This document shows, in pieces, positions 6,116-54,600 of a stretch of DNA of 64,000 nucleotides; positions within the stretch are counted from its first letter, which is position 1, and each line of letters begins with the position of its first letter. This stretch comes from a virus (lineage: Duplodnaviria; Caudoviricetes), in IMG/VR virus record IMGVR_UViG_3300013426_000017, positions 32,001 to 96,000 of that record; one strand, written 5' to 3'. Below the pieces are notes generated by a model. That model worked only from the letters and a program-made list of their open reading frames with translations. It made no database searches and had not been told where the DNA came from. The position numbers and the translations under genes are program-made.

Positions 6116-7831
6116 ATGATTAATGATTTGACCCAACAGGACAAAGAACGAATTTTGGCGTGGGTGGCGAATTATGCGGAACTTGATAAAAACGCAAAGG
6201 GATATACTGTGGCGCCGGCCCCGATTAACGTGGAACCTATGCTGGTGGAATGGGATCGCGCCAAGCAATGGCTCTATCACCTGTTTGGCAACAAATTTAT
6301 TATATCAAAAAATATTGAATATTACAAGCCCTCTTACGATATTAGACAAGATATGTATCAGCGAGTAGTCAAAAATAACGACCTTCGTTACGCCATGGTC
6401 AAGAACTTCCCTAAGTATGAAGCTCAGAATCGCATCATTGAAATGTTCTTCGAGGAAAATCTCGTTGCTAACAAGTGCCCCTTCGATTATACCTTCACTA
6501 TACCCAACTCTGATGCCACTTATAGTGCCAAAAAGGGCATGAAAGTAACACGCGCCATAGCTAACCTCGCCAAAAAGCTAAACATTAATCATAATACCAT
6601 AGAAAGCTTCCTTATCGCTCAAAGTCAGGTAATGAACGATGCCAAGCTCACGGGCAAACTCTGCATTTCTATTCACCCTTTGGACTTCATGACCATGAGT
6701 GATAATGATTGCGGTTGGGATAGCTGTATGAAATGGCGCACCGATGGCTGTTATCGAGTGGGCACGATAGAAATGATGAATTCTCCTTGCGTAGTATGTG
6801 CTTATCTTGAATCTGAAAATCATAGTCTTAAAATACCTGGCGCCGACGCTTGGAATAGCAAAAAGTGGCGCGAGTTATTCATTGTTAATGATGACTTAAT
6901 AATGGAAATCAAGCCCTACCCCTACCACAATGACACTCTGACCAAGGAAGCTCTCAGTATGATTCGTGACCTCTATCCCAATGGTTATTTCAATGAACCT
7001 GAGTATATCTGCCCCTACGAATACCATAATTACTCGTGGGGTAAATGCAGTTTCGATTTCACTACGGATAAAATGTATAATGACATTTATGAGAATGATG
7101 GCGATGAGCATTGGGGCTGCGTGCGCAAGGAGGGCATAGACCCTAACTATTGTCTCAATTATAGTGGCGTGGCGACTTGTGCATACTGCGGCAAGCCCCT
7201 GATTGATTTGCATCATGAACATATTTTGCTTTGTGAAGAATGTCGCAAGCCAAATGTGATAGGGCATTGCGCAAAATGCGGATGTGATATTACTGACTTG
7301 AATCTGGGTATTCAGATTGGTGGGAAAATGTTTTGCGGCAAAGAAGCATGCCGGCCAAAAATACGGTCTGATTCTTTTATAGACACGACTAAAAATGATA
7401 TAGATGATCTAGCCAGTTATTGGTCGCACACTCGTCTATTAAAAGAGAATTGTAAACTCGTTTACCTTGCAAGGGAAAAAGACAACCCACAGCCTACTGA
7501 CGTCTCTAGCTATACTGAAACATCACGCCTATTTCTTGACCACAATACATTCCCTATTGGTTATCTGCCTCATTTCAAAAATGGCAAATGGTATTACAAC
7601 ATAGAAGATATAACCGAGTTTCGTCATTTATGCCCTTGGGGTCTCAGTGTGTCGTGCGCATCAAGAGATGCATACCTGCCTTACACTCATTTTATTGGAG
7701 ATAATGCTAATATGCCATTCTCTCTTGAAAATATGCTTAAATTATATTCCGAGGGAAAATTAGAGCGATTTATTGGATGCTATGATATAGATGTAATGGC
7801 ATATTTGGCAGCTAATAATGACTTTATTTGA
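6116..7831 (+). CDS. Conserved phage protein, paralog 1 (SIHPLDFMTMS...WNSKKWR family, Zn-ribbon tail)
   Basis: 571-aa ORF sharing motifs with 7892-9709 and 12090-13376. Confidence 0.85.
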   Translation: MINDLTQQDKERILAWVANYAELDKNAKGYTVAPAPINVEPMLVEWDRAKQWLYHLFGNKFIISKNIEYYKPSYDIRQDMYQRVVKNNDLRYAMVKNFPKYEAQNRIIEMFFEENLVANKCPFDYTFTIPNSDATYSAKKGMKVTRAIANLAKKLNINHNTIESFLIAQSQVMNDAKLTGKLCISIHPLDFMTMSDNDCGWDSCMKWRTDGCYRVGTIEMMNSPCVVCAYLESENHSLKIPGADAWNSKKWRELFIVNDDLIMEIKPYPYHNDTLTKEALSMIRDLYPNGYFNEPEYICPYEYHNYSWGKCSFDFTTDKMYNDIYENDGDEHWGCVRKEGIDPNYCLNYSGVATCAYCGKPLIDLHHEHILLCEECRKPNVIGHCAKCGCDITDLNLGIQIGGKMFCGKEACRPKIRSDSFIDTTKNDIDDLASYWSHTRLLKENCKLVYLAREKDNPQPTDVSSYTETSRLFLDHNTFPIGYLPHFKNGKWYYNIEDITEFRHLCPWGLSVSCASRDAYLPYTHFIGDNANMPFSLENMLKLYSEGKLERFIGCYDIDVMAYLAANNDFI

Positions 7832-20199: not shown

Positions 20200-20827
20200 T
20201 TGAACCTTGAAAAATAAACACTTGATAACTCAGTGCAGAATGGATGCGATGTCCATGCTGAGAAACATCGAAAAGCGCTCGGAGGTGCCCGAACGAAACA
20301 AGGATACTTGTGGAAACCTGACCGCGGTATGCAAGGCGACTTGTATGCTGAACACCATTTGTGTGGAAAGTAAAGATGTTGTGCTGGCGTTGTCGCATGT
20401 AAAGGATGCCGTGGACAGGGGTGTGCAATAGAAAGCTATCTTGACAAAAGATGGCCTCTCCTAGTTAGGGTGAAACGAGTGGTGTCGTCATTAAACCTAG
20501 GAAATACCAACAAACACCTGTGCCGTGATGTATCAGAAATGATACTATAACTGTCTACAAGCGAACGAGTAGCGGAAGGCAAAAGAATAATGAAGAAAAA
20601 GTATGATATTCTACTTGCGAAGAATAACAAGTAAATTCTGAATATCCCGTGAAAGTTAGAGGTAATCAATCCTCTAGGGGCTTGGGCTCGAAAGAGTGAG
20701 GGCAAAAAGTTTAGTTAAGACGTTAGCTAAGCTCAGATTTGTTTTCTCCCGTGTCTGAATATGCGTGAAGATATACGTTGCAGTAAGGCGAAGGCCTATC
20801 AATGAGTGTTTATTTTTCAAGGCTCAA
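20200..20827 (+). ncRNA. Large structured ncRNA, ROOL/GOLLD class (size favours ROOL)
   Basis: 5' TTGAACCTTGAAAAATAAACACTTGATA pairs with 3' TATCAATGAGTGTTTATTTTTCAAGGCTCAA. Many internal hairpins, promoter directly upstream, embedded in a tRNA cluster, no credible ORF. Confidence 0.7.
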
Positions 20828-22403: not shown

Positions 22404-22566
22404 CCGGGTGTAGCGCAGTTGGTAGCGCGCCTGATTTGGTAAAATGGCAGAATGGGATTGCTTGAGGGGTTCGCCTTGAGGTCAGTTGAATCTGTTGCAA
22501 GTTCGAATCTTGCTTTTACCACTAGGGTTCAGGAAGCCGGGGGTTCAAGTCCCTCCACTCGGACCA
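22404..22566 (+). tRNA. trnP: tRNA-Pro(TGG) interrupted in the anticodon by an 87-nt tRNA-like insert (exons 22404-22437 and 22525-22566)
   Basis: Removing 22438-22524 gives a canonical tRNA-Pro: CCGGGTG/CACTCGG acceptor, CCTGA-TTTGGGT-TCAGG arm, GGGGG-TTCAAGT-CCCTC, ACCA. Confidence 0.85.
22438..22524 (+). tRNA. Nested degenerate long-V-arm tRNA-like element (no canonical anticodon)
   Basis: Perfect GGTAAAA/TTTTACC acceptor, GCA/TGC D stem, GCAAG-TTCGAAT-CTTGC T arm, ends ACTA; anticodon loop is non-canonical. Confidence 0.75.
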
Positions 22567-22569
22567 TAT

Positions 22570-22644
22570 AGCCTCGTCGTATAAAAGTGAGTATGCTGGG
22601 CTTTGAACCCAGAGGAGGTGGAGCGTTACCACCCGAGGCTGCCA
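22570..22644 (+). tRNA. trnQ: tRNA-Gln(TTG)
   Basis: CTGGG-CTTTGAA-CCCAG arm; AGCCTCG/CGAGGCT acceptor; G73; atypical T-loop AGCGTTA. Confidence 0.8.
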
Positions 22645-37571: not shown

Positions 37572-37647
37572 TCCGGCGTAGTGTAAAGGTTAATGCAGCT
37601 GGCTCTAACCCAGCGGATCCCCGTTCGAGTCGAGGGCGCCGGCGCCA
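37572..37647 (+). tRNA. Amber suppressor tRNA (anticodon CTA), probably Gln-charged
   Basis: GCTGG-CTCTAAC-CCAGC arm with CTA at 37605-37607; unpaired 1:72 and G73 (Gln-like); GCCA end; TTGACA-17-TATAAT promoter at 37519-37547. Confidence 0.92.
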
Positions 37648-37749: not shown

Positions 37750-38179
37750 GCAGATATGGTGAAATTTTGGTAAACACAATGGACTTTGATGTATTCTATT
37801 TAATGGTAAATTAAATACTACCAATTTTGGTAGAGAGTGCCTAAAGGGAAACTTTTAGAGTAGAAGCTGGCTAAAACGGCGAAGGCGAATACAGAACGCC
37901 GTGCTAAGTTAAATAAATTGGTGCTAATTGAGTATCTAAAATACTAATTATTAGATTGTATCTCAAAACAATTTATGTGAAATTAGTTGAAATGGTAGGA
38001 CTAACATCCAATTTATTTATAAATGTGTAGAGAGTATATACCAGCTACCTAAGTCTGAATAAGATATGGTAAAGACGTATTCCAGACTACAACACAGAAA
38101 TGTGGCTATGGCGACATAGAGTAGTAAGAAAATCCATCGGCATTACGCCTTGCGGGTTCGAGTCCCGCTATCTGCACCA
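37750..38179 (+). tRNA. trnL: tRNA-Leu(TAA) with a group I intron (exons 37750-37786 and 38129-38179)
   Basis: Spliced arm ATGGA-CTTAAAA-TCCAT; GCAGATA/TATCTGC acceptor; long V-arm; ACCA. Confidence 0.9.
37787..38128 (+). mobile_element. Group I intron (342 nt) in the tRNA-Leu(UAA) anticodon
   Basis: Follows U, ends in G. P/Q/R/S-like cores AAACGGCGAAG, AACGCCGTGCTAAG, GTGTAGAGAGTATA, AAGACGTATTCC. Confidence 0.88.
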
Positions 38180-38645: not shown

Positions 38646-39815
38646 ATGGCATTGACTGAAAAAGGGCGACAGGCCCTTGGTTATATTCAAAAATACTTTA
38701 GTGAGGGTGAATTTTGTGCTAAAGATTTGTCAGATTCATGTGGCGCAAAGGTAGCCCCCGCCACACTCACCGCAGTCGCTAACCAAGGTTTCATTGAAAA
38801 ATTGGGTGGTTCACCCGTTCAGTATAGAGCAGTAGATGAATTTGCTGAACTCATGAAATCGCTTGAAGAAAGCGAAAAAAGTGGCGCCACTAATACAAAT
38901 TTACATAATGCAAAACGGGTAAAAAATGATGAATTTTATACTCGCTATGAAGATATTGAAGCAGAGGTTATGAAATATCGTAAGCAATTCCGAGATAAAA
39001 TTGTTTATTTGCCTTGCGATGACCCCGCTGAAAAGAAAAGTGAATTTTGGTCATTTTTTGTTGCCAATTTTGAAGCATTTGGTCTCAAGAAATTGATTGC
39101 TACTCATTATGAAGAAAATGGCCAGGCATATAAAATTTGGATTGACCGAGACAATGATTTGAATGGCAATGGTTGGATTGATGATGGCGATGCCATTCAG
39201 GAAGACTTGATGGGCAATGGTGATTTTCGCAGCCCCGAATGTATTGAAATTCTCAAAGAATGTGATATAGTATGCACCAATCCACCATTTAGTCTGTTTA
39301 GAGAGTTTGTAGATGTTATTATGACTCATAATAAGCAATGCTTAATTATCGGTAATCAAAATGCATTTACTTATGCCGAAATTTTTGAATTAATTAAAAT
39401 GAACCGCTTATGGACTGGATATAATATGGTAAAGCAGTTTATGGAACCCGATGGAAATTTAAAATCCTTTGGAAATATTTGTTGGTTTACTAATTTGTTT
39501 ACAAATAAGCGTCAAGAGGAACTGATACTAACTAAGGATTATAATCCAATTGATTATCCTACATATGAAAATTATAATGCTATTGAGGTTGGGAAAGTAA
39601 TAAATATACCTAAAAATTACGATGGTATTATGGGTGTCCCTATTACTTTTATTGATAAGTATAATCCTAATCAATTTGTGATTATTGGGCATACTCATTC
39701 CGGTGACAATAGCCCCGAAGTAGAGGCAATAAGAACTGATAATAATCATCGACATGGCGGATTTATCAATGGTAAAGAAAAATATATGCGTGTTCTAATT
39801 CGTCGCAAGAAATAA
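38646..39815 (+). CDS. EcoRI-family adenine methyltransferase with N-terminal wHTH
   Basis: KNDEFYT, VYLPCDDP, GDFRSPEC, TNPPFSLFREF, MGVPITF. Confidence 0.88.
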   Translation: MALTEKGRQALGYIQKYFSEGEFCAKDLSDSCGAKVAPATLTAVANQGFIEKLGGSPVQYRAVDEFAELMKSLEESEKSGATNTNLHNAKRVKNDEFYTRYEDIEAEVMKYRKQFRDKIVYLPCDDPAEKKSEFWSFFVANFEAFGLKKLIATHYEENGQAYKIWIDRDNDLNGNGWIDDGDAIQEDLMGNGDFRSPECIEILKECDIVCTNPPFSLFREFVDVIMTHNKQCLIIGNQNAFTYAEIFELIKMNRLWTGYNMVKQFMEPDGNLKSFGNICWFTNLFTNKRQEELILTKDYNPIDYPTYENYNAIEVGKVINIPKNYDGIMGVPITFIDKYNPNQFVIIGHTHSGDNSPEVEAIRTDNNHRHGGFINGKEKYMRVLIRRKK

Positions 39816-39895
39816 AAATAAATAATAAATAAATTCCATTTAAAAAACACAACTAAAGTTAATTTATATTATAAAGCGTTAAAGGAGATTTTAAA

Positions 39896-41062
39896 ATGGA
39901 GATTCGTAAAACAACTATTACTATTCGTGAGCTGTGTGCTGGTTATGTAAACGACACTGAGACTGACATTGAACGTGGTGTATGGGCTTATGGTGGAAAG
40001 CTGTGTGTTCGTCCTGAATTTCAGCGTTCCTTTGTCTATAATGCCAAGCAGGCAAATGCTGTAATTGATACAGCCCTCAAAGGGTTTCCCCTTAATATCA
40101 TGTATTGGGTTGATAATGGCGACGGCACTTATGACTGCCTCGATGGTCAGCAGCGCACAATTAGTCTGTGTAATTTTGTAGATGGTCTGACATCATATCA
40201 TGGTAATGCTGTGTATACCGAAAAGCCGATGTATATTTCTACCCTTAAACGCTTGTATCCTGAAATGGAGCAGAAATTTCTCGATTATCCTCTTGAGATT
40301 TATATTTGCCGTGGCGCCAAGGCCGATCGTATGGAGTGGTTCAAGACGATTAATATTGCTGGCGAAGAGCTCTCGTCACAAGAGCTGCGTAATGCTAACT
40401 ATGTAAGTAAGTGGCTGACTGATGCAAAACGCTATTTTAGTAAGGCTAATGGTAATGCAAAGTGCCCCGCGGAGAATGTGGGTTCCATGTATACTAAGGC
40501 TAATGCAAATCGTCAGGAATTGCTTGAGCAGGTAATCACTTGGTATATTGATTCCAAGAAGGATGAAGATATTTGTCAGTATATGGATGAGCATATTAAT
40601 GATGACAATGCTACTGAACTTTGGGATTATTTTAATAATGTAATAGAATGGATTGAGACTCTATTCCCCGGCACATATGATAAGGGCATGGCAAATCTCA
40701 ATTGGGGTTCCCTTTATAATAAATATCATGATGAAGAATTTGATTCTGAGGAAATTGTGAATAAATTTAATGAGCTGATTGAATTTAAGGCATCTAAGGA
40801 GCTTGATGCATCAGTAGGAAAAATTGTAGAATATTGTATTACTCGCGATGAAAATCTACTTAAGCATAGAGCATTTAGTGAAGCTCAGCGAACTACTTTG
40901 TATAATCGTCAGAAGGGCATATGCCCTGATTGCGGGGAACATTTTATTAAAGCTGATATGCATGCTCACCATATTGTCCCATGGTATGGTGGCGGTATTA
41001 CTGAACTTACTAATGGCGTTATGCTTTGTAAGAAATGCCATACTAAACGTCATGCCGAATAA
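39896..41062 (+). CDS. DUF262 (GmrS-like) plus HNH endonuclease
   Basis: RPEFQRSFVY, LDGQQR, F..IN..G..L...E; C-terminal CPDC...HAHHIVPW..GG.T..N..MLCKKCH. Confidence 0.88.
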   Translation: MEIRKTTITIRELCAGYVNDTETDIERGVWAYGGKLCVRPEFQRSFVYNAKQANAVIDTALKGFPLNIMYWVDNGDGTYDCLDGQQRTISLCNFVDGLTSYHGNAVYTEKPMYISTLKRLYPEMEQKFLDYPLEIYICRGAKADRMEWFKTINIAGEELSSQELRNANYVSKWLTDAKRYFSKANGNAKCPAENVGSMYTKANANRQELLEQVITWYIDSKKDEDICQYMDEHINDDNATELWDYFNNVIEWIETLFPGTYDKGMANLNWGSLYNKYHDEEFDSEEIVNKFNELIEFKASKELDASVGKIVEYCITRDENLLKHRAFSEAQRTTLYNRQKGICPDCGEHFIKADMHAHHIVPWYGGGITELTNGVMLCKKCHTKRHAE

Positions 41063-41177
41063 TTGACAAAAATAAAATTTTTTGTTATAATATAAATACA
41101 AGGTAAATAATACCTTCACAATTAATTTTCCCCTATTAATTGTTTGGGATTTTCAGAAATGGAAATCCCTTTTATAT

Positions 41178-41252
41178 GCTAGGTTAGCTCAGAGGCAGAG
41201 CGGGCGCCTTGTAAGCGCCAGGCCGAGATTTCGAAATTCTCACCTAGCTCCA
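41178..41252 (+). tRNA. trnT: tRNA-Thr(TGT)
   Basis: GGCGC-CTTGTAA-GCGCC arm; GCTAGGT/ACCTAGC acceptor; CCA. Confidence 0.88.
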
Positions 41253-41373
41253 GGAATGATGGTTCGAGTCCATCTCGCTGATCGAGGTTAGGTAAGTGCG
41301 CGCGATCAAGCCCCTCTCGCAGTTCCGGTCTTAATTGGCTACTGTCCCATGAGGGGGGCGCTTTAGATAAGAT

Positions 41374-41462
41374 GCGCCATAAATTCGTCCGGCGGCGAAA
41401 CCGGTCTTGAAAACCGTGTGTATCAGCAATGATATGTGGGTCGGCACCACTGTGGCGCGCCA
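41374..41462 (+). tRNA. Non-canonical 8/4 tRNA, anticodon TGA (Ser; allo-tRNA-like)
   Basis: 8-bp acceptor GCGCCATA/TGTGGCGC, 4-bp T stem GTGG/CCAC, loop CTTGAAA, long V-arm, G73, CCA. Confidence 0.75.
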
Positions 41463-41483
41463 CTTAACAAGGAGAATGAATAT

Positions 41484-41635
41484 GCGCTCGTAGCTCAGAT
41501 GGTAGTAGCACTTGACTTTTGGTAGATTAGCCTAGCGGTCAGGCGGCGGACTGTTAATCCGCTTCAGATTAGTTCAACTCTAGTATCTACCGCCAAATCA
41601 AGGTGTCGCGGGTTCAAGTCCCGCCGAGCGCACCA
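41484..41635 (+). tRNA. trnK: tRNA-Lys(TTT) interrupted at 36/37 by a complete tRNA-Asn (exons 41484-41520 and 41596-41635)
   Basis: Removing 41521-41595 gives GCGCTCG/CGAGCGC acceptor, CTTGA-CTTTTAA-TCAAG arm, GCGGG-TTCAAGT-CCCGC, ACCA. Confidence 0.9.
41521..41595 (+). tRNA. trnN: tRNA-Asn(GTT), nested inside tRNA-Lys
   Basis: GGTAGAT/ATCTACC acceptor, GCCT/AGGC D stem, GCGGA-CTGTTAA-TCCGC arm, G73, CCA. Confidence 0.9.
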
Positions 41636-41751
41636 TTTCTTTCTTTTTTAGCCCTATATAGAATTACATGATGATTTTATATAGGGCATTTTTTATTTAG
41701 TTAATTAATTTTATTAAGGAGAAATATATATTTAAATCTAAAAATGTTTGT

Positions 41752-42081
41752 TTGATTATTAGTGTGGCGTTGGCTATTTTGTGCCTTATTATTATGATTG
41801 TTGCTTTAGGCACTGGTTCGCAGGGGCTTAATAGTAGTGATGGCACTGAGGTAGCCGGCACTGCTCTGGGTATGGCAATTGTTATGCCATGTGTAGTAGT
41901 TGGTGGTATTGGAACTGTATTGCATACTATTGGTGGTTGTGTCTATAAGCGGGGCTTGGTTCTTGCTGGACTGATTTGTGAGTGCGCTTCTATTATATTT
42001 ATGTTTCTCTGGGGAATGTATTATATTCCCGCTATTGTTCTTGGTTTTATTGGTTACGCCAAGATGCCAAAAAAGGTTTAA
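41752..42081 (+). CDS. Multi-pass membrane protein
   Basis: Three to four hydrophobic helices; start uncertain. Confidence 0.65.
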   Translation: MIISVALAILCLIIMIVALGTGSQGLNSSDGTEVAGTALGMAIVMPCVVVGGIGTVLHTIGGCVYKRGLVLAGLICECASIIFMFLWGMYYIPAIVLGFIGYAKMPKKV

Positions 42082-45114: not shown

Positions 45115-45855
45115 ATGAAATATTTTGTTGTATCAGATATACATAGTTTTTTTGGTGAATTTAAAAAGGCAATAGACGAAGCGGGATTTGATCCTACTGA
45201 CGAAAACCATAGGCTAATTATTTGTGGCGACTTGTTCGATCGAGGATCTCAGCCCCTAGAGCTCATGCAGCATCTTAATGAGGAGGTTCCCAATGCTATA
45301 CTCATTCGCGGCAACCACGAGGATTTGTTTGTTAAAATGTGCGAACGCGGCGAACCTTGGATGCATGATTATAGCAATGGAACTGCACAGACTATATTTG
45401 ATTTCACTGGCGTGGATAAGCCTTGGCCATTTGAATACCGGGCTGAAGTAGCGCTTGGAATGGTGCGGCCAATGCTCAATCGCATGGTAGACTATTACGA
45501 GACTGATCATTATGTATTCGTGCATGGTTGGATTCCTTGTGTTAAGGAACATCATAGGCTTGCAAAATATCGCCCATTAGAAGAAGATTGGCGCGATGCC
45601 CCCAAAAACAAATGGGAAGACGCCAGATGGTATAATGGCATGGATTGTGCCGCCCAAGGTGTAGTGGTCCCCGGCAAGACAGTAGTGTGTGGCCATTGGC
45701 ATTGTAGCTATGGGCATTGGTTTTATGAGAATGATGGTAAGCCTGAGTTTGGCGAAGGAGCTGATTTCTCACCTTATTATGCCAATGGAATTATAGCAAT
45801 AGATGCTTGCACTGCATACTCGGGCAAGGTAAATTGTATCGTGCTTGATGATTAA
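45115..45855 (+). CDS. Calcineurin-like metallophosphoesterase
   Basis: SDIHS, GDLFDRG, RGNHE, FVHG, GHWH. Confidence 0.92.
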   Translation: MKYFVVSDIHSFFGEFKKAIDEAGFDPTDENHRLIICGDLFDRGSQPLELMQHLNEEVPNAILIRGNHEDLFVKMCERGEPWMHDYSNGTAQTIFDFTGVDKPWPFEYRAEVALGMVRPMLNRMVDYYETDHYVFVHGWIPCVKEHHRLAKYRPLEEDWRDAPKNKWEDARWYNGMDCAAQGVVVPGKTVVCGHWHCSYGHWFYENDGKPEFGEGADFSPYYANGIIAIDACTAYSGKVNCIVLDD

Positions 45856-46551: not shown

Positions 46552-47889
46552 ATGAGTATGCATTGCGGATATTGCGTAAAAGTTACTAATTTACGCCCGC
46601 ACACTAATGCAGATAGATTGCAGATTGCCACTTTCTTTGGCAATGATACTTGTGTGGGGCTGGATGTGGTCAAGGGTGAGATTGGTATTTATTTTCCCTC
46701 AGACTTGCAGCTAAGTGAAGAATTTTGTGTGGCGAACCACCTTTGCCGCAAGAAGCCTGATGGCACGCCTGATACTGGCTATCTTGATCCTGAGAAGCGC
46801 AATATCAAGCCTATTAAGTTGCGAAGCGAGAAGTCAGATGGAATTTTCTTGCCTATTAGTTGTCTTGAGTATACTGGTATAAATCTTGATGATATTAATA
46901 TTGGTGATACTGTTACTGTAGTTAATGGACATGAGATTTGCAAGAAATATATTCCTCGTGGCCGCGCCAAAAGCAACGCCGCCAAGGGTAAGGGTAATAG
47001 GACTCGTAAGAAGCATGCACCCGTGGCACCGCTATTTACTGAGCATGCTGATACTGAGCAACTTGCCTACAATCTTGGCGCATTTAAGCCGGGTGATGAA
47101 ATTGAGATCACTCTGAAGATGCATGGCACTAGCCAAAGGACCGCATACCTACCGGTTCTCAAGGGATATAGGCGGACTATTTGGGATAAGTTGCTTGGCC
47201 GCGAAGGTATTCCTATCTATGATTGGGATTATGTGTCTGGTACTCGTAGAACTGTCCTTGATGATTGGGATGGTGGTTTTTATGGTAGTAACGCGTTCCG
47301 TAAGCAGCACCATGATAAGTTCGTTGGTAAGTTGCGCAAGGGCGAGGAAGTGTATTATGAAATTACATCATACACTGATAATGGAACGCCTATTATGTCA
47401 AGTTGCTCAGTTCCAAAAGAATATCAGAATATTTATGGTGATACTATGGAATTTAGTTATGGTTGTTCACCTGATGGCGGTGACGTGCCTCAGTCCGACT
47501 TGTATGTGTATCGCATGACTATGACTAATGAAGATGGTGATGTTGTAGAATATTCACCCGATTTTATGCGTTATCGTTGTGAGCAGATGGGAGTTAAGTG
47601 CGTTCCTGAGTTTGTTCATGAGTTTATCCCCGACCAAGAGTGGCTAGATTCAATGGCGCTAACTGCCGGCGAATATGTCATGGGAGTGGCTGAGCAATAT
47701 TACGATGGTCCTGACCCAATTGGCAAGACTCATGTGCGCGAAGGTGTGGTAGTTCGTATCATTAATCGGCCCAAGTTCTGCGCCTATAAGCACAAAAATT
47801 TTTTATTTAAACTAATTACTGGTATTATTGTGGATAAAATTGCTGATTCTCGTGACGAGATTGGTGAAGACGTTTTAGAAGAATTATAA
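46552..47889 (+). CDS. ATP-dependent RNA ligase (DRB0094/Rnl5-like, N-terminal OB-like domain)
   Basis: N-terminal RPHTNADRL; motif I TLKMHGTS; YYEI; YVYR; REGVV; motif V YKHK. Confidence 0.8.
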   Translation: MSMHCGYCVKVTNLRPHTNADRLQIATFFGNDTCVGLDVVKGEIGIYFPSDLQLSEEFCVANHLCRKKPDGTPDTGYLDPEKRNIKPIKLRSEKSDGIFLPISCLEYTGINLDDINIGDTVTVVNGHEICKKYIPRGRAKSNAAKGKGNRTRKKHAPVAPLFTEHADTEQLAYNLGAFKPGDEIEITLKMHGTSQRTAYLPVLKGYRRTIWDKLLGREGIPIYDWDYVSGTRRTVLDDWDGGFYGSNAFRKQHHDKFVGKLRKGEEVYYEITSYTDNGTPIMSSCSVPKEYQNIYGDTMEFSYGCSPDGGDVPQSDLYVYRMTMTNEDGDVVEYSPDFMRYRCEQMGVKCVPEFVHEFIPDQEWLDSMALTAGEYVMGVAEQYYDGPDPIGKTHVREGVVVRIINRPKFCAYKHKNFLFKLITGIIVDKIADSRDEIGEDVLEEL

Positions 47890-50806: not shown

Positions 50807-51088
50807 ATGCCAAAGGGTAATCGATTTGAAATGCATAGTTTTTATTGTTTGACTTGTGGCAATAAGACATTTGATTTGCCGCGTCAATATAGCCACATGT
50901 ATGGCAAGGGACATATTAAAGACCTATATTGTCCTACTTGTCGCGCCACGAGAAAGACATTAGAGTGTAGAAATGAAACTGAGGTATTTGAGTTTAAGGA
51001 AGATTTTTTAAATGGAACCTATGAAGACGGTATGGATACTTGCGGGGCCGCCGGGCTCGGGAAAATCGACCTGGCTCGAGCAGAATAG
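50807..51088 (+). CDS. Zn-ribbon protein
   Basis: CLTCG...GHIKDLYCPTC; RBS GGAGG. Confidence 0.7.
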   Translation: MPKGNRFEMHSFYCLTCGNKTFDLPRQYSHMYGKGHIKDLYCPTCRATRKTLECRNETEVFEFKEDFLNGTYEDGMDTCGAAGLGKIDLARAE

Positions 51089-51548
51089 ATTACCCCAGAG
51101 CAGAGTAATTTCAAGGGATGAAATTCGTTTCTCGCTTGTAACTGATAAAGATGATTATTTTGGCCAAGAGGATGAAGTATGGCGCCAGTATGTAAAAGCG
51201 GCTCAGATAGCGATTTTGGACAAAGAAATTAAAAATATTTACCTTGACGCCACACATCTCAACGAAGCATCAAGAAATAAAATCTTGAATCTACTGGCGA
51301 AGCCGACCTTGCCCTATTTTGAAATTAAGGTTGTTTATTTTGATGTGTGTTTTGCAGTATGCTGCGAACGCAATGCAAAAAGAACGGGTTTGGCTAATGT
51401 TCCTATTAAAACAATTCGCAGGATGATGAATGCATTTCAAATTCCGACATTTAATGAAAAACATCTGTATACTGAAATTTGGCGTGTAGATGCCCAAGGA
51501 AATATTGAAAAGGAGATAAATTATAATGTATGTTGCTGTCCCGTATGA
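51012..51548 (+). CDS. P-loop kinase, polynucleotide-kinase-like (AAA_33)
   Basis: GPPGSGKSTW, ISRDEIR, DATHL...R, RNAKR. Confidence 0.88.
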   Translation: MEPMKTVWILAGPPGSGKSTWLEQNRLPQSRVISRDEIRFSLVTDKDDYFGQEDEVWRQYVKAAQIAILDKEIKNIYLDATHLNEASRNKILNLLAKPTLPYFEIKVVYFDVCFAVCCERNAKRTGLANVPIKTIRRMMNAFQIPTFNEKHLYTEIWRVDAQGNIEKEINYNVCCCPV

Positions 51549-51798: not shown

Positions 51799-52334
51799 GA
51801 TTTGGGTAACGAGCGACACTCATTTCGGTTAGCCACGATAAAGAATTTATTTGGGGCGCTCGTGGTTTTAATTCAGTAGATGAGATGAATATTGAAATTG
51901 TAAAACGCTGGAATAGTGTAGTCGCCCCTGAAGATACCGTCTATCATCTAGGTGACGTGGCAATGGGAGGTCTTGAGAACCTCGAATGGGTTGATAATCT
52001 CAATGGAACCATTCATTTTATTCGAGGTAATCATTGCACTGATGCACGCGCAGCCAAGCTCGGCGCCACAAAATATGCCGATATACTCAAGTATGGTAAA
52101 TATAGATTTTATTTGTCCCATTATCCTACTTTAACCGCTAATTGGGATGATAATAAGCGAGGCCTGAAAGGTTGCACTTGGAATTTGTGTGGACATAGCC
52201 ATTATACCAACCCAATGCAAGATATGGACAAGGGCATCATCTACCATGTAGAGTTAGATGCGCATCAGTGCTATCCGTGCCTATTGGATGACATTATCGC
52301 AGAAGTAAAAGAATATGTTACAATTAATAGCTAA
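51791..52334 (+). CDS. Metallophosphoesterase requiring a +1 frameshift at GGT-TAG-C (or a pseudogene)
   Basis: Frame 0 gives MSKIWVTSDTHFG. HDKEFIWGARGF...YHLGD...GNH...SHYP...GHSH continues in the +1 frame after 51833. Confidence 0.7.
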
Positions 52335-53050: not shown

Positions 53051-54600
53051 TTGGCGACCTATAATTTTTATGATACGTGTAGCCTATTGCTAAGGGTCGA
53101 TGATTTATTCACTAAGCCAGAAAATATAGTGATTTCATCTATTACCCTCAATGAGCTAGAGCATATCAAGACGTCGGCGAATAAGGACGAAACAATCAAA
53201 CAAGATGCCCGCGTCCTGTTGCGTAAATTAGCAACCAATAGGGATAAGTATGAAGTTTGGATATTTAATGAATCTATGTTGGAGCCTATGACGGATAAAC
53301 ATTTATCTGTCACCCCCGATTTAAAAATCTTGGCGACCGCATTAGATTATGATACTAGAATTCATCCTGATGAAACAACCTTTATTACTAATGATTTGGC
53401 GCTATTCAATATTGCCAATTTATTCTTTGGCGATGATAGTATCCGAATGGTTGAGGAGTGTAATGATGATTATTCGGGATATCTAGACCACGTGTTCACA
53501 GATGAGGAACTAGCCTATTTCTATGAGCATCCGTATGAAAATGTCTACAATCTTGAGGTAAATGAATATCTCAATTTATATAATAGCGAAAAAGATTTAA
53601 TAGACCAAGTGTGTTGGACTGGCGATGGTTATCGCCATGTTGGGTCATATACATTCTCATCTATGGCATTTGGTGATATTAAACCTATAAAAAATGACCC
53701 TTATCAATATTTGGTAATGGATAGTCTTAAAAACAATCAGATAACGATGATTAAAGGGTTGCCTGGTTCAGGAAAAAGTATTTTAGCACTCTCTTATCTA
53801 TTTAGCCAATTGGATAAAGGGCGTATTAACAAAATAATTATTTTTTGTAATACTGTCGCCGCAAAAAACGCGGCAAAACTAGGGTTAGTTGGGTAAGGCC
53901 CTAGTATAAAACCTGGTGAATTGCTGGGATCCCCTTAGAGCTACACAAACCACAGCGTAAGGATGAAACAGGCCTAGATGCGAAGGTGTAAAAATTGTGG
54001 AGATTGGGCAATCAGCAGCTAAGCCCCGAATAGGGGAAAGTTCAACGACTATCGAAATCATGCATATAATGTAGAAGAGAGTAGAGTAGATAAGAAATTA
54101 TCGAAGCGCCAGGAATTTAAATTAAAAAATAGTTTAAATTAAGATATAGTCTGGCTCATAATGAAAATTATGAGGTTATTGTTTACCCCGGTGAGAGGGA
54201 TACCAAGCTGCTAGATTCTCAGATCGGTAATCTGCTAATTACAAAGTTGGGCAGTCGCATGGCTGTTGAACGTCTACTAGAAGACGAGCGTTTGATTCTC
54301 ATGCCATTAGCAGATTGTCGTGGCGTAGATACATCTGACATGAAAGCTGGTGTTTATATTTCAGAAGCTCAAAATATGGATATTTATCTAATGAAGCTTG
54401 CCCTCCAGCGCATTGGCGAAGATAGTATTTGTATCATAGATGGCGACTATAGTGATCAGGTTGACGATCCCGCATTCGCAGGTCGCCAAAACGGCATGCG
54501 TAGAGTATCTAAAGTATTTCGTGGTGCGGATATTTATGGTGAGGTCGAGCTGCGCCATATTCATCGTTCTAAAATTGCAAAAATTGCGGAGGGGCTATAA
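53051..54600 (+). CDS. phoH: PIN-PhoH protein, interrupted by a group I intron (exons 53051-53885 and 54182-54600)
   Basis: PIN (YDTC...ELE...D..IL...TND), Walker A GLPGSGKS; spliced KLGFYPG; RG, EAQN, RIGE, GDYSDQ. Confidence 0.9.
53886..54181 (+). mobile_element. Group I intron (296 nt, no ORF) in phoH
   Basis: P1 CTAGGGT/GCCCTAG with U-G at the splice site; P10 GGGTAA/TTACCC; cores AATTGCTGGGA, AATCAGCAGC, GTTCAACGACTA, AAGATATAGTCT; terminal G. Confidence 0.93.

Follow-up and report, generated by a model that had tools for sequence, protein, structure and literature searches.

To our knowledge, the only accepted tRNA introns of bacteria and phages are self-splicing group I ribozymes. In the tRNAs of Lak megaphages, Devoto et al. 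2019 (PMC6784885, Fig. 4) reported 'enigmatic introns' and remarked on a tRNA-Thr whose intron 'itself may encode a tRNA', and a survey of jumbo phages published in 2026 remarks that such introns 'could encode another tRNA' (PMC13037316). These two papers note the feature only, giving no boundary rule, selection analysis or mechanism, and beyond them our literature search found nothing further on tRNA-in-tRNA introns. The original prediction for the phage gene considered here, namely a complete tRNA-Asn lodged in the anticodon loop of a tRNA-Lys(UUU), had left its novelty to such a search: the nesting as such had already been mentioned in both papers, but the mechanism is not given there.

We have analyzed this nested gene within the window, that is, the whole stretch of 64,000 nucleotides of gut phage DNA under study, as well as in related phages, from which the same locus was fetched via the neighbouring ORF and the RNA ligase (L and G numbers denote the loci and genomes of these relatives). 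As in the Lak phages, the phage uses an alternative genetic code, a short predicted tRNA interrupts the anticodon loop of one of its tRNA genes, and some relatives have this insert while others lack it; moreover, the ligase of Lak-B4 is a distant homologue of the ligase encoded here (25.5% identity, E 1e-11). The present phage differs from Lak in belonging to another lineage (~170 kb, with its nearest ligase relatives in large Bacillus siphophages), in having tRNA-Lys as the host of the insert and in carrying as insert a fully canonical tRNA-Asn, the only Asn gene of the genome. To the previous reports the present case adds an intron that is a fully canonical tRNA, empty-site alleles that match exactly, the presence of the nesting in six independent assemblies and a measured conservation of the split gene.

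The locus shares with group I introns, known from cyanobacterial and plastid tRNA-Leu(UAA) and from other bacterial and phage genes (PMC3984707), the position in the anticodon loop, the polymorphic distribution and the presence of homing-endonuclease genes in sister inserts. It differs from them in its length of 75 nt, the lack of a ribozyme core and the end in ...GCCA instead of omega G. A search of positions 41100-41800 found no group I core (RF00028) even at E<=1, whereas the same search does find the group I catalytic intron located at 53842-54173 (plus strand; 90.7 bits). Identity with a group I intron was consequently rejected on the basis of the missing RF00028 match, the size of only 75 nt and the terminal A. 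A self-cleaving ribozyme was likewise rejected, as Rfam detects no ribozyme in the region of the nested gene. Having no ribozyme core, the insert cannot self-splice and would need protein enzymes together with a ligase.

In archaea, the intron of tRNA-Trp encodes a C/D box RNA. More generally, the bulge-helix-bulge introns of archaea and eukaryotes (reviewed in PMC4090602) resemble the case proposed here in that proteins cut and ligate around an anticodon-loop intron that can be a functional RNA. The nested gene has, however, no motif of two 3-nt bulges and a 4-bp helix, its insert lies at 36/37 and not at 37/38, and its splice sites would be set by the tRNA shape of the intron rather than by an exon-intron helix, in a phage without splicing endonuclease. 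A bulge-helix-bulge intron was thus rejected, given the absence of the motif (by inspection), the 36/37 site and the lack of PF01974 in the phage genome. Cutting by RNase P and RNase Z at an embedded tRNA fold has precedents in mitochondrial tRNA punctuation, the t-elements of plant mitochondria and the mascRNA of MALAT1, but there the flanks stay unjoined, whereas here they would have to be ligated into a second tRNA. A phage ligase that reseals a break in the anticodon loop is known from the repair of PrrC-cut tRNA-Lys(UUU) by Pnkp and Rnl1 of phage T4 (reviewed in PMC3400036), and the present phage encodes a ligase as well as a kinase-like protein (AAA_33) and two metallophosphoesterases that may serve in end healing. 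In contrast with T4, the break would be programmed by the architecture of the gene and not made by a nuclease of host defence, the ligase is Rnl2/Rnl5-like instead of Rnl1, and the break is situated at 36/37 instead of 33/34. A link of the nested gene to PrrC is only an idea.

Structure and genomic setting of the nested gene

The nested gene extends over 152 nt (41484-41635, plus strand) and consists of a 5' piece of 37 nt, the 75-nt insert and a 3' piece of 40 nt. ARAGORN calls the insert (41521-41595) a tRNA-Asn(GUU), 75 nt long, in which G73 and CCA follow an acceptor stem of 7 bp, while the Rfam tRNA model gives this segment 54.2 bits. The acceptor strands GGTAGAT and ATCTACC pair at 7/7 positions and are followed by G-CCA; the inner tRNA also has the other traits of an elongator, namely a cloverleaf, the GUU anticodon, U33, a purine at position 37 and the T-loop TTCAACT. 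When the outer pieces are joined (41484-41520 with 41596-41635), ARAGORN calls a tRNA-Lys(UUU) of 77 nt with the loop CTTTT-AA and an encoded CCA, the insertion site lying within the 7-nt anticodon loop between U36 and A37. The predicted tRNA-Asn, intact and running exactly from G+1 to CCA, is thus borne out by ARAGORN and Rfam, and the uninterrupted alleles presented below fix its boundaries to the base; the ARAGORN calls suggested as a check on insert and exon join also came out as expected. The accompanying claim that deletion of the insert restores a flawless Lys anticodon loop and perfect stems holds for the loop but not for all the stems, since the D-stem has a mismatched or bulged position at C13/T23. 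This position, which is the sole blemish of the outer cloverleaf, is common to the uninterrupted orthologues.

According to ARAGORN with introns allowed, the nested pair represents the sole Lys gene and the sole Asn gene of the 175-kb genome. The outer Lys gene is itself not reported by the program under this setting, because the insert is located at 36/37, and routine annotation would therefore miss it. The centroid fold of the 152-nt RNA contains the outer acceptor and T arms alongside the inner acceptor, anticodon and T arms; by inspection, the outer anticodon stem is separated from the inner acceptor stem by two opposed single strands of 5 and 6 nt.

Table 1. Features of the window considered in this work, with the evidence on which each assignment is based.
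Feature	Position	Strand	Evidence
tRNA-Pro(UGG) 5' exon (second nested gene)	22404..22437	+	ARAGORN with introns allowed; boundary set at inner +1
87-nt tRNA-shaped intron of tRNA-Pro, ending A-CTA	22438..22524	+	Rfam tRNA 40.6 bits
tRNA-Pro(UGG) 3' exon	22525..22566	+	ARAGORN; inner-unit boundary rule
Promoter-like TTGACA-17-TATAAT with extended -10, upstream of tRNA operon	41063..41091	+	12/12 consensus; pattern match only
tRNA-Thr(UGU), first gene of operon	41178..41252	+	ARAGORN; Rfam 55.7 bits
Long-arm tRNA-like gene (tRNA-Sec-like fold) between Thr and Lys	41373..41459	+	Rfam tRNA-Sec 42.3 bits
tRNA-Lys(UUU) 5' exon, positions 1-36, ending CTTTT	41484..41520	+	Exon join called tRNA-Lys (ARAGORN); equals uninterrupted L018, L026
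Intron: complete tRNA-Asn(GUU), G+1 to G73-CCA	41521..41595	+	ARAGORN; Rfam 54.2 bits
tRNA-Lys(UUU) 3' exon, position 37 to CCA	41596..41635	+	ARAGORN on exon join; uninterrupted orthologues; 3-allele comparison
Intrinsic-terminator-like hairpin with T run, directly past outer CCA	41651..41697	+	16-pair stem, then ATTTTTTATT
Metallophosphoesterase, possible RNA end-healing phosphatase	45115..45855	+	PF00149 2e-16; weak match to bacterial Pnkp
ATP-dependent RNA ligase (Rnl2/Rnl5-like), candidate exon sealer	46552..47889	+	phrog_968 'RNA ligase' 2e-61; TIGR02306 1.8e-9
P-loop kinase-like protein (AAA_33), possible 5'-OH polynucleotide kinase	51012..51548	+	PF13671 3.7e-16
Second metallophosphoesterase	51885..52334	+	PF12850 1.2e-9

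The elements around the nested gene are listed in table 1. Among these, the long-arm gene preceding Lys scores less than the gathering score of the tRNA-Sec model (42.3 against 47 bits) and is not called by ARAGORN, but it is kept upstream of Lys in L023. Downstream of the consensus promoter, and still ahead of tRNA-Thr, there is another terminator-like hairpin followed by a T run (41146-41169, plus strand), which may serve in attenuation or in processing. Directly upstream of the operon (38646-41062, plus strand) are found an EcoRI-type adenine methylase (PF13651, 3e-105) and then a GmrSD_N plus HNH protein, a pair that is present also in L027.

Other features of the sequence deserve mention in their own right. 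A tRNA with the suppressor anticodon CUA is encoded at 37573-37643 (plus strand) and the ORFs of relatives contain in-frame TAG codons (HNH gene of L004, GIY-YIG gene of L001), which together indicate that TAG is a sense codon in the clade. The gene for tRNA-Leu(UAA) at 37750-38179 (plus strand) contains, after U34 and before A35, an insert of 342 nt with G as its last base; it is split also in L006 (2416-2846) and in L027 (1350-1681, with an insert of 244 nt) and uninterrupted in L008 (2791-2876). This insert has no Rfam group I match even at E<=0.1, although its site is the classic group I site of trnL. The first tRNA cluster contains a full-length ROOL RNA (RF03087, 301.9 bits) at 20205-20817 (plus strand), flanked by a Glu-type tRNA and tRNA-Met. 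Of note, the first ~40 bases of the G000 contig (175,406 bp) recur near its end, and this suggests that the assembly may be circular or circularly permuted (the record is classed as linear).

Empty sites, nested alleles and conservation of both tRNAs

The uninterrupted Lys orthologues of L018 (737-813) and L026 (5228-5304) read GACTTTT-AATCAAG straight across the junction and, apart from one base pair of the acceptor stem and one base of the D-loop, are identical to the exon join of the window. As the uninterrupted alleles equal the exon join, the insert corresponds exactly to 41521-41595, without duplication or deletion of the target. The same Lys site shows presence/absence polymorphism of the insert among related phages: it is empty in L018, L026, L029, L030, L031 and L003, carries a different insert with an HNH gene in L004 and L015, and has the nested arrangement in the window, L023, L027, L028, L024 and L025. 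These last six assemblies contain three distinct alleles and derive from IMG/VR (the window), Logan run SRR19668116 (L023), two ENA assemblies, one of them labelled gut metagenome (L027 and L028), and an NCBI assembly and a Logan run (L024 and L025). The phage is present, for instance, in the samples from which ERZ964367, SRR19668116 and SRR13434605 derive. In the closest relative, G001 (locus L001), a GIY-YIG gene (2117-2760) has replaced the Lys/Asn gene, of which the last ~25 nt of tRNA-Lys remain (2840-2868); tRNA-Lys is dispensable in this phage, since its gene has been lost to that endonuclease gene. The Lys locus is a hotspot for mobile elements.

The nested alleles L023, L027 and L024 have a further tRNA-Asn gene, unrelated to the nested one, which stands alone 6 nt upstream of Lys. 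Such a gene (L023 1608-1682, L016 3724-3798, L024 1699-1773) is absent from the window, which has lost the upstream tRNA-Asn present in its relatives. The nested tRNA-Asn of L023 and L024, where the free gene is also kept, has G32, whereas that of the window, its only tRNA-Asn, has the canonical C32. Searches of IMG/VR, JGI metagenomes and GTDB genomes with junction and inner-tRNA patterns yielded no further copies, a search with the anticodon arm retrieved only unrelated free-standing tRNA-Asn genes, and blastn against INPHARED found nothing similar to the nested gene.

All 41 base pairs of both cloverleaves form in each of the three nested alleles, and four pairs are changed on both sides, situated in the outer acceptor stem (6:67), the outer T-stem, the inner anticodon stem and the inner T-stem, the last being U-G, U-A or C-G depending on the allele. 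In a control in which the 3' partners were slid by 1-3 columns, pairing dropped to 33-49% and double changes to zero. The nesting with compensatory changes that the original prediction proposed to look for in related phages is thus found, with two of the double-sided changes in the outer and two in the inner tRNA. Between nested alleles, 4-8 of the 77 positions of the Lys exons are different; for the inner tRNA the count is 7-10 of 76, a divergence of 9-13% which argues against a recent import of the locus. For comparison, the ligase gene lying 5 kb away in the same genomes shows 83-86% identity overall and 63-70% at third codon positions, a neutral benchmark that may be distorted by phage mosaicism, as the tRNA locus and the ligase gene may differ in their history. 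The sequence directly outside the outer tRNA is unalignable, conservation ending exactly at the outer tRNA ends. The exons are therefore better conserved than third codon positions, which indicates purifying selection on the split Lys gene; had this gene been dead since the insertion, it would have decayed, and its retention implies that the insert would have to be removed from the RNA. On this comparative basis, we consider it likely that such removal occurs and yields a working tRNA-Lys.

Alternatively, the Lys gene could be dead, with tRNA-Asn being released by RNase P and 3' trimming and the Lys halves being discarded as leader and trailer. The fully canonical nature of the inner tRNA and the dispensability of Lys in the closest relative would be compatible with this possibility, which we nevertheless regard as unlikely in view of the outer exons, which are about 95% identical among nested alleles (4-8 differences in 77 positions), set against 63-70% identity at nearby third codon positions. 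Moreover, all five substitutions in the outer stems keep pairing (two of them being double changes), the anticodon loop, T loop and CCA are intact, conservation stops precisely where the outer tRNA does, and the outer exons evolve more slowly than the inner tRNA. Decay of the outer halves in relatives, which had been named in advance as the mark of a pseudogene, is not found: the Lys exons are conserved and their pairs are kept in the three alleles.

A family of tRNA-shaped inserts

The tRNA-Pro(UGG) of the window is a second nested gene (table 1). In its insert, a D arm, a T arm, a long variable arm and an acceptor stem of 7 bp can be recognized, but the anticodon arm is degenerate; the same insert in the closest relative (L005) shows compensatory changes, from U-A to C-G in the inner acceptor and from A-U to G-C in the inner T stem. 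The tRNA-Pro of G002 was considered as an empty-site allele for this case and rejected because it is too diverged. Directly after the nested Pro gene lies a tRNA (22570-22641, plus strand) that is recognized by Rfam only (46.2 bits), the L005 orthologue of which (6823-6897) is called tRNA-Gln(UUG) by ARAGORN.

Related phages contain further inserts of this kind: in Glu-type tRNA, inserts of 95 nt and 75 nt as well as a version of 844 nt that contains an ORF, 735 nt in Asn and 98 nt in Gln. The orthologous Lys genes of L004 (2069-2879) and L015 (1956-2766) have a different, tRNA-ended insert of 734 nt at 34/35, the ORF of which (L004 2199-2813, with TAG read as sense) encodes an HNH endonuclease (phrog_2255, 7.6e-20). 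For some interrupted genes of the relatives ARAGORN returns the labels 'SeC(tca)', 'His' and 'Thr', which we rejected as due to the splice point chosen by the program; when the inner unit is taken to run from G+1 to three bases past the discriminator, the mislabelled genes read Glu(UUC), Asn(GUU) and Lys(UUU).

In 10/10 cases compared, representing seven independent insertions, five of them in related phages, the insert starts with an acceptor strand that is paired at 7/7 positions and extends to the third base beyond the discriminator, the terminal triplet being CCA eight times and CTA twice, and its exact removal restores a 5-bp stem and a 7-nt loop (the two HNH-bearing Lys cases were read by hand as CTT-TTAA). 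The insertion site in the host loop varies, being 34/35, 35/36 or 36/37. Constant insert ends combined with a varying site in the loop indicate that both cut sites are set by the shape of the inner tRNA and not by the host tRNA, which is how RNase P and enzymes acting on the 3' end would choose them.

Candidate enzymes and a putative splicing route

The candidate for sealing the exons is the ATP-dependent RNA ligase of table 1, the TIGR02306 match of which is of the DRB0094 type and the homologues of which contain PF09414. The family has the invariant motif LKMHGTS, resembling motif I of T4 Rnl2, and a profile search of the PDB gave a weak match to the latter enzyme; a search of the PDB with the single sequence gave no match, and structure prediction from an alignment of 12 sequences was unusable (mean pLDDT 35). 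No match to the Rnl1 family (PF09511) is present in the phage genome, its ligase being of the PF09414/TIGR02306 kind. The arrangement of ligase, phosphoesterases and kinase-like protein is conserved in relatives. The nearest cultured relatives of the ligase are found in large Bacillus phages (47-49% identity), which hints at a host among the Bacillota. Bacillus phage PBC2, which has the nearest cultured homologue, possesses 19 intact tRNAs and no intron; the presence of the ligase without any tRNA intron indicates that the enzyme is not dedicated to splicing. In the genome of our phage we found neither RtcB nor the splicing endonuclease EndA (PF01974), no detectable RNase Z, RNase P protein or CCA-adding enzyme, and no reverse transcriptase.

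In the route that we propose, a single precursor transcript would derive from the small operon, including tRNA-Thr, the odd tRNA, Lys with its enclosed Asn, and the terminator. The inner tRNA-Asn would fold and follow the usual course of tRNA maturation, with RNase P cutting 5' of the inner G+1 and leaving a 3'-OH on the Lys 5' exon. An endonuclease of RNase Z or RNase E type would cut just past the encoded CCA, freeing tRNA-Asn and leaving a 5'-phosphate on the Lys 3' exon. The outer acceptor, D/T and anticodon stems would keep the Lys exons together until the Rnl2-like ATP-dependent ligase of the phage seals U36 to A37, the predicted spliced junction being GACUUUU joined to AAUCAAGG. One gene would thereby give two products, tRNA-Lys(UUU) and tRNA-Asn(GUU). 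We infer all enzymatic steps and the chemistry of the ends from what is observed of the anatomy, the empty-site alleles, the selection, the boundary rule and the presence of the ligase, and judge this combination of RNase P, a cut after CCA and joining by the phage ligase to be moderately probable.

In favour of this route, the two ends of the insert fall exactly where any tRNA is cut during its maturation. A U at N-1, followed by G+1 and combined with a G73-CCA end, makes a favoured substrate of bacterial RNase P, and the base at N-1 of the inner tRNA-Asn is U. RNase Z enzymes that cut just past an encoded CCA are documented (PMC7479834, citing Minagawa 2004), the instances that this source and its references provide including the RNase Z of T. 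maritima, archaeal RNase Z, B. subtilis RNase Z with Co2+ and sometimes RNase E. An Rnl2-like ligase requires exactly the 3'-OH and 5'-phosphate ends that RNase P and the 3' endonuclease would leave. On the other side, Rnl2-type ligases favour nicked duplexes over loops. Two of the sister inserts end in CTA and not in CCA (for these, a cut by RNase Z after the discriminator was considered and rejected, as it would leave 10-nt loops), the ligase family occurs in phages such as PBC2 that have no tRNA introns, and Lys is dispensable in G001. Bacillota, furthermore, trim CCA-encoding precursors mostly by exonucleases, and the RNase Z of B. subtilis is inhibited by CCA unless Co2+ is present (PMC7479834). 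The original prediction that the inner tRNA acts as an intron, with two tRNAs produced per gene, therefore fits all the comparative evidence (empty sites, conservation, compensatory changes), but its enzymatic side is weakened by a ligase that is not specific to intron-bearing phages.

The insert could also be a true intron removed by other chemistry, a dedicated endoribonuclease of phage or host recognizing the tRNA-shaped insert and producing a 2',3'-cyclic phosphate and a 5'-OH. These ends would be healed by the kinase-like protein and the phosphoesterases of the phage and then sealed by the ligase, in the manner of the T4 Pnkp/Rnl pathway, or be joined directly by a host RtcB. The AAA_33 kinase-like protein and the two metallophosphoesterases near the ligase, in an arrangement conserved among relatives, would suit this chemistry, and the CTA-ended inserts speak against strict recognition of CCA. 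We assign to it the same low probability as to a dead Lys gene, given that no candidate nuclease was found, that the phage lacks RtcB and EndA, and that known enzymes already cut at the boundaries, which are a natural RNase P site on one side and a natural 3' end of a tRNA on the other.

A further proposal concerns the origin only and is compatible with either an intron or the other readings: a mature tRNA-Asn would have been ligated into a cut Lys loop, copied to DNA and recombined into the genome. It finds some appeal in boundaries that run exactly from +1 to CCA without target duplication, as well as in the presence of a repair-type ligase. Nevertheless, CCA is encoded in the tRNA genes of this phage anyway and hence is not diagnostic, no reverse transcriptase is encoded, the HNH genes of sister inserts point to homing at the DNA level, and none of the free-standing Asn genes found in relatives or collections is similar to the inner one, all of which renders this origin less probable still. 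Finally, an assembly chimera, considered in the original prediction, or a sequencing artefact is refuted to near certainty by identical junctions in six assemblies (IMG/VR, Logan, ENA, NCBI) from different samples and assemblers, with three diverged alleles.

Returning to removal by tRNA processing enzymes and a ligase, we see even chances that the locus represents protein-dependent tRNA splicing in bacteria or phages with a tRNA as the intron, and that the ORF-less and HNH-bearing inserts would together form a new class of mobile introns. If true, tRNA splicing would exist in a third form, one that uses ordinary tRNA end-processing enzymes plus a ligase, a route that so far has been demonstrated by nobody. 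The nested Lys/Asn gene offers the cleanest test case, having a complete tRNA as intron, exact ends and natural intron-less alleles as controls. Because standard tRNA finders miss the outer genes, the tRNA repertoires of phages are undercounted, and with them the arguments on codon use and stop-codon recoding that have been built on such repertoires. Phage RNA ligases, if the proposed route is true, would gain a routine job beyond the repair of damage inflicted by the nucleases of host defence.
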